A stretch of DNA of 64,000 bases from a virus: positions 18,468 through 82,467 of IMG/VR virus record IMGVR_UViG_3300015078_000001; one strand, 5' to 3'. The notes beneath the pieces are model-generated. The model was not told the DNA's origin and searched no databases. It saw only the letters and a program-made list of their open reading frames with translations. Made by a program: the position numbers and the translations under genes. This document shows positions 1,807 to 27,085 of this stretch, one piece after another; position 1 is the stretch's first letter; each line of letters begins with the position of its first letter.

Positions 1807-3819
1807 TTATAAGGCTCCGAGTATCGCGTCGAGGCCGTGTTCGTTTCTATAATCTGGCTCAGGCTCTACTGAGACTTGCACTATTGGGTTTGGTAATTCT
1901 TCTGAAACTAATTCCATTTCAAATGTATCGGGATTGTGTCTTAAAACATATCCTTTGAACGGAGAAGCCATATTCTGAGAATACGAATCTCCGTATAGTT
2001 CACCAGTAGCGTCAAATACATTCTGCCAGTTACCATCTGACCGACTGTAGTTGTTTAACTGTTGTAGTTGGACTATCTGAGACATCCTCGGAGCATATCT
2101 TATTTGATAAGATATAACATCTGGAATATCCTCATGATGGTGCTTTCCGGTACATTTCTCAAATTCGTCGTACAATACATCTATATTGCCGCCAAGTAAA
2201 TGAGAGACGAAATAAAGCATATCGTTGGTTAGCCAGGGATGCAGTGCCTTAATTCTTGTTTGCTTGGCATCTTTACCCTGATCTGGTTTAACCCAGTCTA
2301 TTCTAGAACATACGTCATATATATCAGGAAGCTTGGTTTTGATAGCTTCTTGCTGGATAGCCATACTAAGGAATTCAGCACCAGCGGATTTTTCAACACC
2401 TATGATAAAGGGCTTATACTTAACAGCAAAGTCCACAACAGCTTTGGCTAACGCCGCAGGTTTGAACTTCGCCCGAATCATATCTATAACAATAGCCTGA
2501 TTCTTGGGATTCCAGATCATACATGATCCGGTAGTCCAGTCTCTGCCTTTTTCCGTACTATATGCAAAATCCCAGAACTGACAAATAGGGCCACTTGTAG
2601 GAATGATAGGATCGTTAAACGGTATAGTGTGCTTCATCATTAAAGCACGATCAAAAACTATATTACTAGCTGACCTTGGGTTCTGGTTCTGCTGGCCTTC
2701 GAATATCTTTTCGTTTTTATTATATTCGTACAAACACCATTCGTATGTATGAAGCTCGGGGAATAGAAGAGTACATCCTTCTTTTCCTGCTTCTGCGTAT
2801 GTAATAGGTCTGTTATCAGCTTCTAGTTTAGCGCGAACTTCGGGTTTGATTACTATACTCTTACCAATAAGAATACGTAATCCACTTTCTTCGTTATCTA
2901 TTAATTCCCAGTTATCACCAACAGTTCTTGTGATCTTACCAATATTCTTTTGAATATCTTCGCCGTACATATCTTCATCGGCGTATCTAGTTCCGATTTT
3001 ATCGGCATATCCGGTAGGAACGAGAGTTTTATGTTTCTGGCTATATCCGGTCGATATCTTTTTACACTGAGTGTCATTATTACTGTTCTGTTCAGAAACT
3101 GAATCATCCGCTTTAATAACTTCATAGTGACCACCTGTACCTGTAGCATCAATAGCATCGGCTCGCACCGTAGGTTCTTTTCTTTTAAGACCCTTCTTTA
3201 CCCACAATGCACACGGACATATAAGTTCATCAGCCTGTCCCGATTGTTTATGGTAGAAGCAGAATTCAGGGAAATAAAGGTTCATCAAACTAGGTTCATC
3301 ATCATTTATAATAAAATGACCCTTAGTTTCTCCAACGAATCCTTCTCCGAGTGGAAGAGTAGCAGTAAGATATAAAATACGTATATCAGGAAAGTTCAAT
3401 ATCCATTGAACAACATCATATCTATCCCAGGCTGATTTACCTGTACCTCTAGGGTATAATATAAGACGCTCTTTACGCCAGTCCTGCTGACCTATAGGTT
3501 TTGTCTTATCTTTCTTGACGAACATATCGCATACCCTGCGGTGTACGTGTTCACAAAAAAAGTTGTCCGTAATCGGTTTACCGACTCCGAAGACATCTGT
3601 ATCCCATAGAAAATATTTACCAAGGAACCATAAATCCTGCTCGCATCTGCGACGAACTTCTTTTACTAGTGGGTACGTGAGCAGGTGTTCTAGTCCATAC
3701 TCTCCCGCTTTTTTAACACTCTCGAAGATATCCGGACGAATTATATAGTCATATAAGTTTTCATCGGTTATATCAGTACCTTTACCTTCGTCCAGAAGTT
3801 CTTCGATATTTTGATCCAT
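1807..3819 (-). CDS. terL: Terminase large subunit
   Basis: Walker A-like LILYPRGTGKS, Walker B-like IKADD, C-terminal nuclease-like FWDFAYS and HHEDIPD; 670 aa; next to the portal. Confidence 0.9.
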   Translation of the reverse strand: MDQNIEELLDEGKGTDITDENLYDYIIRPDIFESVKKAGEYGLEHLLTYPLVKEVRRRCEQDLWFLGKYFLWDTDVFGVGKPITDNFFCEHVHRRVCDMFVKKDKTKPIGQQDWRKERLILYPRGTGKSAWDRYDVVQWILNFPDIRILYLTATLPLGEGFVGETKGHFIINDDEPSLMNLYFPEFCFYHKQSGQADELICPCALWVKKGLKRKEPTVRADAIDATGTGGHYEVIKADDSVSEQNSNNDTQCKKISTGYSQKHKTLVPTGYADKIGTRYADEDMYGEDIQKNIGKITRTVGDNWELIDNEESGLRILIGKSIVIKPEVRAKLEADNRPITYAEAGKEGCTLLFPELHTYEWCLYEYNKNEKIFEGQQNQNPRSASNIVFDRALMMKHTIPFNDPIIPTSGPICQFWDFAYSTEKGRDWTTGSCMIWNPKNQAIVIDMIRAKFKPAALAKAVVDFAVKYKPFIIGVEKSAGAEFLSMAIQQEAIKTKLPDIYDVCSRIDWVKPDQGKDAKQTRIKALHPWLTNDMLYFVSHLLGGNIDVLYDEFEKCTGKHHHEDIPDVISYQIRYAPRMSQIVQLQQLNNYSRSDGNWQNVFDATGELYGDSYSQNMASPFKGYVLRHNPDTFEMELVSEELPNPIVQVSVEPEPDYRNEHGLDAILGAL

Positions 3820-13153: not shown

Positions 13154-13958
13154 TTTCCGGACATGAATCCTTCCAGGTACTTTGTAATAGAAACAGAGTA
13201 TGCTCCAATCGTTCTGCTAATTCTTTTGACATTTTATCTAAAGCATCTACTGTTGCCGGATTAGACATACAGTAATCTTCTATTATGGCTAAGTATTCAT
13301 CATTGGTACAGTAATCCTCCCACATTGTACCTGTTACACTTCTGTTCTTTGAGACTTTGGTAGATTCAATCCCCATAACTTCCTATCCTCCCATTTCAGA
13401 ATATCGTACTGTTCTACTACTTCCCACTTACCTTCATCCTCTTCTATTGATATAATACTTCCCGGTTTAACTTTACTATTGTAATCAAGCCAGGTTAATA
13501 TAAAGACGTTATTACCTTTTGTATTATCAGGATTTCTAACTAACCGAAGTTTTGTCTGTATTCGCTTCATACCAGATATCCCTTCTTGTACGGTCGTCCA
13601 TTTTCCGGACATCGTTCACTTGTTCTTCTGCCATTACTCTTTCCTGAGTCCAGTTAGGGCCGTACCAGGTATCAAACATACCTAATACAAATACTATATC
13701 AGATATAGGTCGCCCACATATTATGGCGTTTCTAAAAGCATTTACAGCATTCACTATTAATTCAGCATCTTTAGGGTCTTTCACATATCCCTTAACTCCG
13801 ACATGGTTGGCTGTAAGTATAAGATTATCTCCATAATATCTAGATTCCGGAGTTTCGGGAACATCTTTCTTTAAATCTCCGTTCTCTAATTTCCATAATG
13901 GTTCTTCTTTATACGCTATCCATTTACCAGACATCAATTGTTCTGCTTTTATCTCCAT
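13110..13958 (-). CDS. Three overlapping small hypothetical genes (13110-13376, 13334-13612, 13536-13958)
   Basis: ORF track; co-oriented and overlapping. Confidence 0.45.
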
Positions 13959-14149: not shown

Positions 14150-14178
14150 ATTATACACAGCCCACTAGTGCATGTCAA
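14150..14178 (-). promoter_or_regulatory. Consensus sigma70-type promoter driving the leftward operon
   Basis: TTGACA-17 nt-TATAAT, exact consensus on the minus strand. Confidence 0.85.
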
Positions 14179-15173
14179 ATCTAAGTTCCAGGGACGTTAT
14201 AAGGTAGTAGAAGTGTACCGTCCCAGATGGTACCTTATTAAAGGAAACAGGACTGGCTTGTACTTTTTGTATATTGGTGTATATTGGCGTATACCTGTGC
14301 AGGCCGAGGGTATTACCAAGTCACCCAAGCCCGCTCCCCCTACTCAAAGGGGGTTGATCCCCCTGCCTAGTCTAGCTAAATCGTAAAGTAGTACTCCCTA
14401 GATATAAATATAATCATATCTAAGACTTAGCTCAGGATATAAACCCGAGAATTCTCGCATTTTAGGCCAATTGGCGTATACTTGAGAAAACAGCTATTTT
14501 GTGAATATACAGTTTGGCGTATACTTTTGCGAATGACGTAAAACAGGGGAAAATAGAATGGAGTGGTGGACTAGGTAACCCTATGGTAATCCCATAGATA
14601 TATTTACGCTGATATCTACGCCAATTGTATATTTATACCTGTAATCGGACCGCGATTCCGCCTTTTCAACGCAATCCGCTGATTCCAAAGGCTTTACGCG
14701 ATATCGCCGAAACGCTCAAAACCTGTCAAGCCCCTTTTTTCGCTTTGTTTTGAATGAGTTAGAGCCGGTCGCCGAAACACCGTGCTAGATTGCATTCACC
14801 GCAACGGAGCAGCGGCAAACATGAAAATCACTATCTACCCCGACAATAAACAAAATATCCACGTATCTGAAGTGCTAGCAATGCCCGTACATATTCCGGT
14901 ATATTTTGAAGTGTTTAACGGGACATACGAGTATTACATTTACGTCTAGTCACTATCGGGCACACTCACCGAGTGTTTCCGAGTAGAAACTAGCGTCCAA
15001 CACTGGCTGAATGCAAAGAGACGGTCTGAGACACGGGGAATACCCCTTAGCATATCTCAGGCTGTTAGATGCCGTGAAAAACTGGTATAAGTCTGGTTTA
15101 CCTGTAGGGGAATACGCTTTGGGAAATAGTTAAAAGCCTTTGTTATCAGGCATTTAGCCTTCCCTTGATTCCG

Positions 15174-16716: not shown

Positions 16717-17826
16717 CATGACGGAGCATATACTTCGCTGTATGCTTCGATGATATTACTCTAAATGGAGAAAACATGGAATATACAATAAGGGAATCTC
16801 AGCCTATGACGGATGATACTGTTACTTGTCCGCATTGTGGTGCAATAACCTGTATTGCAGTACCCTGCCCACGTTGCGGGAAAATCAGTTAGTCCAGTAA
16901 ATGGACATGGCCGATATCCTTCGGGGTATCGGCTTTCTTTTTGTCTGGAGTATTCGCTTTTTGTACGCCTGGCGGAAAACGCGCCAGGATGCCCTATAAA
17001 CGCTCGACAGCATTTTGAGCATGTACCCTGCGTGGATCAATGCAAACGGGCCTGTATCGGCCACGGAGGCATCAAAAACCCGTATCCTGGTGACCGATTG
17101 AACCCCTGCCGTTCACGTTCCGCCGAATGACCGCTAGAATTTCCCCTGAATTTCCATCCTACCTATACTCTATAAGTCAAGGTATTTATTCAAAATACCA
17201 TATAAAAATCCTCAAAATACTACAAATTGTATACAAAATATAGTTTTTTGTATATGTTTTATAATATATTCGATGCTATTATATAGCCCTGGCATAGTAA
17301 TAGCCGTGCCCTGGCCGGCGAGCCGATGTCCGGAAAATGGACATAAACCGAATCGAATCAGCGGTTTAGCGGCGATGCCGCACCGTCCTGAGCAATTTCA
17401 GGGCCAAAATCTGTCAAGCCCCAAACGAAAAAAAATTTCTCGTTTGTTTTCAACGGTTTACAGCCGAAAATTTTTTGCGGCTCCGTTGTTTGCAGTCGGT
17501 CGTGCGACAATGGTGTTGCGCCAAAGCCCGTGTATAGCAGGGCAGGGAAGGAAAGATGGCACAACCAATACGGGTAAGAGTAACTAAGCCGCTAATGAAG
17601 TCTACCTGGAATCCTGGTAAGATGAACAGGAAAATAAAGGTAAATGCGGCTAAGAACAAACTTAATGAGTTTGGGAATAGGGAGGCTGTAAAATGAATAC
17701 TAAAGTACTAGCCTTTGAAGAACGTAAATCAAGGTTTTTACTATACACTATGGAAAAACCTTATAAGTTTGTATGGGCGGAAAGTTTAGGATGTTGGATG
17801 GCGTTTAGGTTAGCAAACTTACCAGT

Positions 17827-18880
17827 TGTATGGTAGCCTGTACTTACAGGCAAGCTACAGGAATTAACTCCCTGTATCTTGCTGGTAAGTATAGATTAGT
17901 CAGCGCGGTACTTGAATCCTAAAGAGTATACCGGGTGTCTTACGAGACATAAAGCCTGGTATTCAGGGTGATAAATTCAGAGCACCCAACAAGTACAGTC
18001 CATACATTTATCCGGCCATAGGCCGTAGTATAGGGCAAAAGTAGCCGCTATCATACTTGCAAGTCACGGAAGTGGCGACCAATGATGGGTATAAACAATT
18101 TGTCTGGGGTACTTTCAGCGTAGCTTTTGCTTATTTCTCTACGTTCTTTCAGCCTTGAGACACCTGCAAACATAATCCCGATTAATTCGGAATTGCACTA
18201 GTGTGCATATTGCATGTTTATATCTATCATTGGTTGCCATTTCGCAGGCATTCTATGATGTATACAATCAATATCAGGGTTATCTTATCACCTCCTAATG
18301 TATAATCCCTGTATTTGAGTTAAACTCCTCCAATAGTGCGGATAGGACTTCACTATTGCAGTGATTGTATATATCATAGAGTGCCTATTTATGGCGTTCT
18401 ATAGAGTAGATAATAGGGTCGTTAGCGGAGAAATTACCAGCAAGTGCGTAGGAAAACGGTAGTAAGCTTCGTAAGATATCCATTGATTGAATTCCTACCT
18501 TTGAGATATTCACTATTGTCTATTCTATAGAGCGTCATACGTGGCGAGGTAGTTTAATTCTGTAACAATGCTATACGGCAATTAGGGGAGCCGATAACCA
18601 CTCCATTAACATCAGGTTATCATACTTACCTAATATCAGGTAGAAAACATTGTCAGCTAAATTAGAAAGGGTCTGTCCCTTCTAGTCCTGGCAACAAGAT
18701 TCTGTCGGCTGTATAGATCAGGAATAGAATTGGCTATCTTTCCGGGCTGCTCCTGATTATAATTAATCGAGAGGCCGTTTAACCGAGTGTAGGTTTAATG
18801 CTATAGGCATATAGATTGCCGATAGTATACTCTATACTCAGTTAAGCGGCCTTTCTTTTGGTTATAACAGGGCAGCCTAG
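17827..18880 (+). ncRNA. Putative giant structured non-coding RNA locus
   Basis: About 1.05 kb with no credible ORF; four long duplexes of 25-30+ bp, many short hairpins, an 11-bp long-range pairing; wobbles are G-U on the + strand. Confidence 0.7.
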
Positions 18881-18994
18881 AGAAGGGAAGCCTTGAGAGG
18901 TAACGACTGCCGGGAGACCGAAAACGATACTTCTCCCCTTCCTATGAGCAATTATGTCCAGAAAATGGACAGATTGTTGATAGGAGAGGAAAAT

Positions 18995-19279
18995 ATGGCT
19001 AAAATTACAATTAGTGAAGGCCTGACCTGGCTTAAAACCCTGGAGAAACGTCATGCAGAACTTGTAAGATTGCGTGATAATAATTCAAAATCAGTATCGT
19101 CGAACTATAACGGTGCTGTTACTACTCAGGTACCTGAGTATAATGCCAAAGAACTTGATAAGCGTATCACATTGCTTGCCAGAGAACTAAGGCTTTGTGA
19201 AACAGCTATCAAGAAAGCTAACGCTGTTACAGTTTTGGAATATCACCAGGATGATAATGTTCTCGGTGAATTGGTTTAA
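18995..19279 (+). CDS. Helical protein resembling DIP1984/DUF6847-like family
   Basis: MAKITISEGL...IKKANAVTVL pattern; all-helical; GGAGAGGA RBS. Confidence 0.45.
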   Translation: MAKITISEGLTWLKTLEKRHAELVRLRDNNSKSVSSNYNGAVTTQVPEYNAKELDKRITLLARELRLCETAIKKANAVTVLEYHQDDNVLGELV

Positions 19280-20009: not shown

Positions 20010-20453
20010 ATGAACGCACAAATTGAACAAGCCCTGAAAGATTGTAGAGAAGCCTGGGCACAACATCCCGAAGCAACTATCGCCTGGTGTTGTCACCATG
20101 AAGTACAGATTGAGCCGTTAGCCTTTCCTGTTGAAGAACGTATTGAGTATATTTTAAACAATAAACCTGAACAGGAAAGAGTTTTACGGTTTACTAATTT
20201 CCGACCTTTTATCGGTACGCTACCGAGAGGAATGCAGAAAGCTGATGCTGACTGGCAGAAAGCTTATGCTGACCGGCAGAAAGCTTATGCTGACCGGCAG
20301 AAAGCTTATGCTGACTGGCAGAAAGCTGATGCTGACTGGCAGAAAGCTGATGCTGACTGGCAGAAAGCTTATGCTGACTGTAAAGATGAAATCAACGTCC
20401 TTCATCAACAGCAAGTTCCAAACAATACCTGGAACGGAAAGAGTATCTTTTAG
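20010..20453 (+). CDS. Hypothetical protein with heptad repeats (QKAY/DADW/R)
   Basis: GGAGG RBS; seven 7-aa repeats. Confidence 0.75.
   Translation: MNAQIEQALKDCREAWAQHPEATIAWCCHHEVQIEPLAFPVEERIEYILNNKPEQERVLRFTNFRPFIGTLPRGMQKADADWQKAYADRQKAYADRQKAYADWQKADADWQKADADWQKAYADCKDEINVLHQQQVPNNTWNGKSIF
20234..20380 (+). repeat. 7 x 21-bp in-frame tandem repeat
   Basis: GCAGAAAGCT(G/T)ATGCTGAC(T/C)G x7. Confidence 0.95.
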
Positions 20454-26101: not shown

Positions 26102-26413
26102 TTTCGATTCAGCCTATAGTTATATAGGTTGAAATGGGGGTTAAAATGGGCGTATCTAATTCAATAGTTGAATCTATAGATTCTAAAACTCATATAGGGT
26201 GTCCGGGTGTTTTAGTAATAAGTACAGAATATACAGAAAAGGGCGAAAAATTTGATGAAAGATGGTACCAAATTGAAGCAGATAAAATTACTACTTTTTT
26301 AATACGAATTTTTAGTATTAAAACTATACGTTGTATTGCAAAAAACCTTGAACATTATTTATAGTCTTTCGAGCAAATGTCCATTTTCCAGACATTTGTT
26401 GGGGAGATTAAAA

Positions 26414-27085
26414 ATGTTAATAGGTAGAGGAAGACATGAAGAAGTGATGGGATATCAGTTTCAGGACCATGGCTTATTTACCAAAGCTTTAACTCATAAA
26501 AGTTTTAGCTTGTTAAATAACGAAAAGCTTGAATTTCGGGGTGATTCTATCCTCGATTTTGTACTAACAGACTGGTTGCTTACTAAGTTCCCTGATAAGT
26601 CCGAAGGTGATTTAGCTAAGCTATGGGATAGAATGGCATCGGCCCATAATCTTGCGAGAATTAGTAAAGAAATTGGTCTGGATAAGTGGATAATTAAGAA
26701 GCAGCATGTACCTATATCCGATCAGTTACTTGCCGATACACTAGAAGCTGTTATCGGAGCTATTTATCTTGACGGAGGATTAGAACCTGCTACTTTGTTT
26801 ATCCATAGATGGGTTACTAACATCATACCCGAATCTGTAGACTATAAAACTCAGTTACAGGAAAAAACCCAGGCGTTTGGATATACCCCTGTATATGAAA
26901 CAATACAAAATACAGCTTCTCAGGGAAATAGATTGGTATTTACGGCTAAACTAGAAATTCCCCAGAGAGTTGTTCGGCGATATGATGGCGAGCTACATGA
27001 CGTTGTTATACGGTTTCTTGCAGAAGGTTATACCAAGAAAGAAGCAGAACAGAACGTAGCTAAAAAAGCTTTGGAGGTATTATGA
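26414..27085 (+). CDS. rnc: Ribonuclease III (catalytic domain plus dsRBD)
   Basis: ALTHKSF..NNEKLEFRGDSIL, ADTLEAVIGAIYLDGG, DYKTQLQE, GYTKKEAEQNVAKKALE. Confidence 0.93.
   Translation: MLIGRGRHEEVMGYQFQDHGLFTKALTHKSFSLLNNEKLEFRGDSILDFVLTDWLLTKFPDKSEGDLAKLWDRMASAHNLARISKEIGLDKWIIKKQHVPISDQLLADTLEAVIGAIYLDGGLEPATLFIHRWVTNIIPESVDYKTQLQEKTQAFGYTPVYETIQNTASQGNRLVFTAKLEIPQRVVRRYDGELHDVVIRFLAEGYTKKEAEQNVAKKALEVL

Follow-up and report, generated by a model that had tools for sequence, protein, structure and literature searches.

Unpaired C-rich loops that bind Shine-Dalgarno (SD) sequences are known from the bacterial small RNAs RsaE, RNAIII (S. aureus) and LhrC (PMC2790875), which are discrete molecules of 100–500 nt, each having a promoter and a terminator of its own, several copies of UCCC and demonstrated targets. 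Among large RNAs, the closest published parallel for such a 16S-tail copy is OLE, a chromosomal RNA of Bacillota in which the anti-SD mimic CCUCCU, located in P6, is paired to an SD-like strand and bound by bS21 (PMC12054373). OLE also belongs, together with GOLLD and ROOL (both often found in phages and prophages), to the large ornate RNAs that assemble via intermolecular contacts into homo-oligomers (PMC12286853). Exposed anti-SD loops as such are already known from bacterial sRNAs, but the setting described here is different, one conserved loop of 13 nt in a modular phage RNA of 1.16 kb. As in RsaE, RNAIII and LhrC, the motif is an SD-complementary, C-rich hairpin loop, predicted to be unpaired, that stays the same while the helices vary. 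Unlike in those RNAs, a single ACCUCC is present, no extended target was found and there is no sequence or Rfam relationship. With OLE the phage RNA shares a large, structured, non-coding nature and, in the window, the CCUCCU of the 16S 3' tail, although its motif is predicted to be single-stranded in an RNA without GGAGG, whereas OLE forms an SD/anti-SD duplex, is not a phage RNA and has no homology to the RNA described here (no Rfam match). It resembles GOLLD and ROOL in being a large, multi-helix, phage-borne RNA supported by covariation, and departs from them in matching no Rfam model, in consisting of tandem modules closed by near-perfect stems of 25–29 bp, and in that the number and content of these modules differ between its two known members.

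The window, by which we mean the whole 64-kb stretch of DNA analysed, is part of a 109-kb record of an uncultured virus, a soil phage whose nearest cultured large terminase (TerL) is that of Tunturiibacter phage Tunturi_3 (27% identity). Leftward structural genes, the large terminase (1807–3819) among them, end at 13958 and have a perfect sigma-70 promoter at 14178–14150 on the minus strand, while rightward genes run from about 19 kb up to the end of the window. The two blocks are separated by an ORF-poor, GC-enriched stretch that opens no long frame under reassigned stop codons either. Within it, an intrinsic terminator on the + strand (16909–16944) and an AT-rich spacer set the upstream part apart from a three-part unit made up of small ORFs (of which that at 17556–17696 is conserved), an ORF-free region (17837–18994) and the gene of a 94-aa protein (18995–19279). 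The only relative spanning this locus is a 6.5-kb Logan contig, hereafter L026, which was reached through its version of the 94-aa protein (91% identical). The main features of the locus are the following.

17556 to 17696, + strand: gene of a 46-aa basic protein upstream of the RNA, 65% identical in L026.
17837 to 18994, + strand: predicted structured non-coding RNA of about 1.16 kb, from a small ORF (stop codon at 17834–17836) to the 94-aa gene.
18069 to 18243, + strand: stem-1 module, a 29-bp stem (18069–18097 with 18215–18243) around a 117-nt insert.
18246 to 18270, + strand: 5' arm of stem 2 (inverted repeat I3).
18362 to 18386, + strand: 3' arm of stem 2, the inverted repeat that pairs with 18246–18270.
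18390 to 18539, + strand: stem-3 module, a 27-bp stem (23 Watson-Crick and 4 G.U pairs) and a 96-nt insert.
18995 to 19279, + strand: gene of a 94-aa helical protein immediately 3' of the RNA, with five homologues at 60–91% identity.
26336 to 27085, + strand: RNase III gene of the phage, located in the rightward block that also holds the RNA.

No ORF was found in 17837–18994, and reassignment of TGA, TAG or TAA opened no long frame, which rules out a coding region under another genetic code. The predicted folding energy (MFE) of the region is -459 kcal/mol on the + strand vs -367 kcal/mol on the minus strand, that is, better by 92 kcal/mol on the former. Its three long stems comprise 71 Watson-Crick and 10 G.U pairs with zero mismatches, and all ten non-Watson-Crick pairs are G.U when read on the + strand. 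Since the opposite strand would have a C.A mismatch in place of each of these wobbles, and given the difference in folding energy, the RNA is read from the + strand. The L026 homologue folded by itself also gave a strongly negative score (z = -14), and in an RNAalifold consensus of both sequences the pairs changed on both sides amounted to 3/67, 22/135, 7/36 and 3/37 in four segments, none being broken. With about 35 compensatory pairs in total, 17837–18994 is, on the evidence of this predicted structure, a real and presumably transcribed RNA of the + strand. Leaving the loop aside, these compensatory pairs, although from a single comparison, place it among the better-supported new large structured phage RNAs.

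No Rfam model matched the window RNA or its L026 homologue, whether at the gathering score or with E values as high as 10, except for pre-miRNA hairpin models, whose sub-threshold hits are due to the long stems, and the GOLLD and ROOL covariance models gave no match. A possible rRNA fragment was considered at 18565–18612, where GUAACAA, UAGGGGA and CCACUCCAUUA follow each other in what we take to be the same order as at the 3' end of E. coli 16S rRNA; this candidate was rejected, as the spacing differs and no SSU model matched at E values up to 10.

The RNA is unevenly conserved. Its 5' domain is 91% identical to L026, including a block of about 120 nt (17980–18097) that is nearly unchanged, at about 97% conservation, and the remainder is 67–73% identical. 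Stem 1 (25 Watson-Crick and 4 G.U pairs) carries two compensatory changes in L026, where an unrelated sequence of 52 nt takes the place of the 117-nt insert. In stem 2 a U-A pair has been replaced by C-G, as its one compensatory change, and two G.U pairs by A-U, while the stem-3 module is missing from L026 precisely and as a whole. This pattern suggests that modules have been gained, lost or replaced as units, the closing stems being kept.

Several other routes were followed in search of relatives. Among the five homologues of the 94-aa protein, the RNA lies upstream only in L026; the contigs L027–L031 carry genes in that place instead. Among the relatives sharing TerL, one (G001) stops short of the RNA and three (G002–G004) are without it. 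No close relatives of the flanking proteins were found in IMG/VR, no matches to the neighbouring 140-aa and 46-aa proteins, and homologues of a 209-aa protein came only from contigs too short to use. Exact-pattern scans of IMG/VR returned nothing, pattern scans of metagenome and genome contigs gave only chance matches (L033, within a coding region, and L034, from Microcoleus), and a covariance model of hairpins A and B (see below) recovered only the window itself and L026. The RNA family has therefore two known members, and the conservation of the loop rests on one comparison.

An earlier note on this DNA had described two anti-SD mimics displayed in a loop that is closed by a stem of 25 bp. 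The stem is indeed there (18246–18270 with 18362–18386, 23 Watson-Crick and 2 G.U pairs), but the 91 nt inside it are predicted to fold into three hairpins rather than to stay open, giving a module of 141 nt with the following parts.

18271 to 18314, + strand: predicted hairpin A, an 8-bp stem (18271–18279 with 18307–18314) whose apical loop displays the first motif.
18283 to 18295, + strand: conserved loop motif UCUUAUCACCUCC, which holds the ACCUCC anti-SD core (18290–18295) and reads UCUUAUAACCUCC in L026.
18287 to 18296, + strand: 10-mer matching the 16S 3' tail, AUCACCUCCU (AUAACCUCCA in L026).
18317 to 18327, + strand: predicted hairpin B, GAGU-UAA-ACUC, conserved as GAGU-UAAA-ACUC in L026.
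18328 to 18361, + strand: predicted hairpin C, a variable arm replaced in L026 by a different and longer hairpin.

The two mimics fared differently. The second, CTCCTCC, does lie at 18325–18331 on the + strand, but it is not displayed. Its bases have predicted unpaired probabilities of 0.01–0.16 except for C18330, the sole unpaired base of the seven, as C18325–C18327 are part of the 3' strand of hairpin B and C18328, U18329 and C18331 pair at the base of hairpin C. Nor is it kept in L026, which reads CUCCUG. Judging from these folds, CUCCUCC (18325–18331, + strand) is an ordinary helix strand and not a displayed anti-SD sequence. The first, ATCACCTCCT, was found on the + strand at 18287–18296 as described, and here the prediction of a single-stranded motif held in both RNAs. 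In the apical loop of hairpin A each base of ACCUCC has a predicted unpaired probability of 0.92–1.0 in the full-length RNA of window and L026 alike, as compared to a mean unpaired fraction of 0.30–0.32 over the entire RNA (partition-function folding in both cases).

What is conserved is not exactly what had been proposed. The ACCUCC core is identical in L026, the sole homologue. The match to the 16S tail stands as far as the presence of the 10-mer in the window is concerned, but only 8 of its 10 positions are kept in L026, and the unit that is conserved is UCUUAU-N-ACCUCC (12 of 13 positions identical) and not the 16S tail; where the window has the CCUCCU that is also found in OLE, L026 reads CCUCCA. 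The exact 10-mer taken by itself is weak evidence, with one exact copy in the window and two with up to one mismatch, against 3.9 expected, so it is not significant window-wide. The loop motif differs from L026 at 1 of 13 positions and the stem of the same hairpin at 9 of 16 nucleotides (Fisher p = 0.008), even though all eight stem pairs are kept (four by double and one by single changes), and the domain in which they lie is only 67–71% identical overall. Moreover, ACCTCC and GGAGGT are strongly avoided in the 64-kb window, with 8 occurrences on both strands vs 22 expected, about three-fold under-represented, and ACCTCC occurs just twice on the + strand. The 13-nt element is probably under purifying selection, as far as two sequences can tell.

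These same data bear on the possibility that the loop has no sequence-specific function. Chance, or the way mutations happened to fall locally, would then have kept it alike in two phages that are fairly close, and its likeness to an anti-SD sequence would be a coincidence noticed post hoc. There is a single homologue, the exact 10-mer decays in it without having been significant in the first place, the second motif, singled out for the same reason, proved to be just one strand of a helix, and no target was found by scanning the 109-kb genome or 113 ribosome-binding sites (see below). The contrast between a nearly unchanged loop and its heavily substituted stem, within a domain of such modest identity, and the avoidance of ACCTCC elsewhere speak against it, and we regard coincidence as unlikely, albeit as an explanation to be taken seriously.

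A reading on the opposite strand was considered as well, in which the motifs would be the SD sequences of small unannotated genes. Read on the minus strand, AGGAGGTGAT and GGAGGAG are both strong SDs. However, as the earlier note had pointed out, neither is followed by ATG, GTG or TTG at 4–12 nt, and this is true in the window as well as in L026; the nearest minus-strand start after AGGAGGTGAT is a TTG 19 nt downstream. Wobble pairs and folding energy favour the + strand, and the perfect sigma-70 promoter of the leftward genes is located far to the left (14178–14150). Already contradicted by the lack of start codons and by the strand, this reading is extremely improbable.

Partners for the loop were sought first of all in the RNA itself, where neither GGAGG nor GGAGGU occurs between 17837 and 18994. 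Parts of the loop have a complement at three places in the window: AUUAGGGG (18581–18588), GGGUGAUAA (17966–17974) and the loop of hairpin C, GAUAGGA (18341). All three could pair in the window and were rejected, as L026 neither keeps nor compensates any of them and its changes break the pairing. This result weighs on the idea that the loop has a structural role, in which it would help the large RNA to fold or assemble by touching another loop, a receptor or a second copy of the RNA (a tertiary or quaternary contact), with its anti-SD likeness being incidental. The RNA is large, highly structured and strongly covarying, large ornate RNAs do assemble by intermolecular contacts (PMC12286853), and the window does offer those three partners; but with none of the three maintained in L026, no GGAGG or GGAGGU anywhere in the RNA and a motif that is not self-complementary, a structural contact seems quite unlikely. 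Were the loop structural or incidental, the finding would shrink to one ordinary feature of the RNA.

Outside the RNA, both strands of the 109-kb genome were scanned for duplexes with the loop, and no extended complementary site beyond the generic 6 nt of GGAGGU was revealed; the best + strand matches (-16.5 kcal/mol) fell within genes and not at their starts. Pairing of the loop with 113 candidate ribosome-binding sites gave no gain over shuffled loops (-9.2 vs -8.2 +/- 0.7 kcal/mol). Exact 6-bp partners do exist, since all six + strand copies of GGAGGT in the window are ribosome-binding sites, placed 3–4 nt before a start codon; the genes starting at 20010, 27082 and 39930 are examples of such GGAGGU-led genes.

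One gene next to the RNA has an anti-SD sequence of its own, in the following hairpin.

18937 to 18989, + strand: predicted local hairpin (z = -7.9) that sequesters the SD of the 94-aa gene, AUAGGAGAGG, by means of CCUUCCUAU.

This hairpin is identical or compensated in L026 and constitutes a cis anti-SD separate from motif 1. We found no indication of a cis-sequestering role for motif 1 itself: the next downstream SD is about 690 nt away and is provided with this conserved anti-SD hairpin. It had also been noted that SDs of the phage are hidden in junction hairpins, which holds for the examples folded. At five gene junctions (27306, 27724, 28007, 29403 and 39897) the arrangement stop-CUUACC-hairpin-GGAGG(A/U)-3 nt-AUG was observed, with a covarying hairpin of 7–8 bp and flanks that pair and enclose the SD (z = -2.9 to -3.8), an organization consistent with translational coupling. 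The suggestion that the loop might open these hairpins in trans fails on mechanistic grounds. An anti-SD sequence pairs with the SD strand, so the SD would stay blocked and one block would merely be swapped for another; freeing it requires the complement of the sequestering strand (CUUACC...). A global sponge for exposed SDs is, in our own assessment, unlikely, because one 6-nt site per RNA of about 1 kb would have to compete with the ribosomes of the cell.

The reading we prefer, tentatively and by analogy, is that ACCUCC could act as an anti-SD seed of the RsaE/RNAIII type, dampening initiation on leaders of the GGAGGU type, perhaps as a module released by RNase III. The RNA would be transcribed from the + strand at the head of the rightward gene block, and the phage-encoded RNase III may first cut the module out of the long RNA at the 25-bp stem. 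The partners of the ACCUCC loop would then be a limited number of mRNAs, of phage or host, that have ribosome-binding sites of the GGAGGU type, and pairing with these sites would lower 30S loading, which is how the C-rich, unpaired loops in RsaE, RNAIII and LhrC work. We infer transcription and processing of the RNA, its pairing with SDs and the effect on translation only from the sequence and its predicted folding.

Release of the module is conceivable because the phage encodes a complete RNase III with a dsRNA-binding domain (Pfam matches Ribonucleas_3_3 3.9e-25, Ribonuclease_3 3e-20 and dsrm 4.5e-8) and the closing duplex is 25 bp long. Precursors processed by RNase III include the processing stems of rRNA operons, the T7 early RNA and the prophage RNA DicF. 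The phage RNA resembles them in that long duplexes, of 22 bp or more (mismatch-free stems of 25, 27 and 29 bp), surround or border a putatively functional RNA and go together with an RNase III gene, here carried by the phage, although its stems have no recognisable homology to the known sites, and the 25–29 bp stems are candidate substrates.

Two further points stand against an anti-SD seed. There is one 6-nt seed per 1.16 kb of RNA, and 6 bp are short for a specific sRNA-target duplex; furthermore, a seed model does not account for the UCUUAU half of the loop, which is conserved as well. This second point is better accommodated if UCUUAU-N-ACCUCC is a protein-recognition loop for some protein whose normal ligand is the 16S 3' tail or a similar pyrimidine-rich strand, with the RNA serving as decoy or scaffold. 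Candidates would be the ribosomal proteins bS21 or S1, a host factor directed at the anti-SD, or a phage protein like the 46-aa basic one, whose gene is found directly 5' of the RNA in both phages. That protein is rich in lysine and arginine, starts with MAQPIRVRVTKP, has no Pfam family and is itself a candidate RNA-binding partner. The precedent of OLE, with CCUCCU in P6 bound by bS21 (PMC12054373), and the lack of an RNA partner for the loop in the 109-kb genome or within the RNA point in the same direction. On the other hand, the anti-SD of OLE is paired with an SD-like strand while the phage motif is predicted to be unpaired in an RNA without GGAGG, and no bS21 gene was found in the phage record. 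We consider recognition by a protein rather unlikely. Very unlikely, in our opinion, is the more specific proposal that the exposed copy of the 16S tail is a decoy, an abundant early phage RNA that would titrate a factor binding or attacking the anti-SD tail of the ribosome, whether S1, a protein of the bS21 type, or a nuclease (from host defence or a toxin) that targets the 3' end of the 16S. If it were true, the messages accepted by host ribosomes would be re-programmed, many phage SDs staying protected in hairpins until translation arrives.

If the loop is either the anti-SD seed that we prefer or such a decoy, the phage would carry a translation-control element within a large modular RNA of no described family, and phage-encoded regulators of ribosome-binding-site recognition have been little studied. 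The case is directly testable thanks to the small size of the module (141 nt) and to the six GGAGGU-led candidate partner genes.

Some further features were observed around the RNA. To the left, a second ORF-free conserved stretch extends over 14300–15120 of the window (1545–2130 in L025 (G001), and G003:C1:41833-42143). It contains patches 67–75% identical to a 13-kb relative with a 90%-identical TerL, and two 20-nt islands (14378–14397 and 14734–14754) that are 95% identical in a distant 98-kb relative (TerL 48% identical), a pattern of conservation typical of another, putative, structured RNA. Closer to the locus, some 740 nt (16821–17561 in the window, 325–1066 in L026) are 66% conserved, with a 26-aa fragment as the only common ORF; between the terminator at 16909–16944 and the 46-aa gene there may thus lie a leader or another non-coding RNA. 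Downstream, a 147-aa gene starting at 20010 and missing from L026 includes nine tandem 21-nt repeats (20213–20399) that encode WQKA(D/Y)AD heptads. Finally, a short hairpin, (A)UGUCC-N5-7-GGACA(U), with UUUAC or GAAAA (in either orientation) as its loop, is present in at least eight copies in the window, starting approximately at 13596, 15918, 16892, 17326, 18954, 19515, 22120 and 41170. It is often located just 5' of a start codon, and the copy at 18954 is found within the SD-sequestering helix of the 94-aa gene. A regulator of the phage might bind to this hairpin, or it might serve as a signal for processing.
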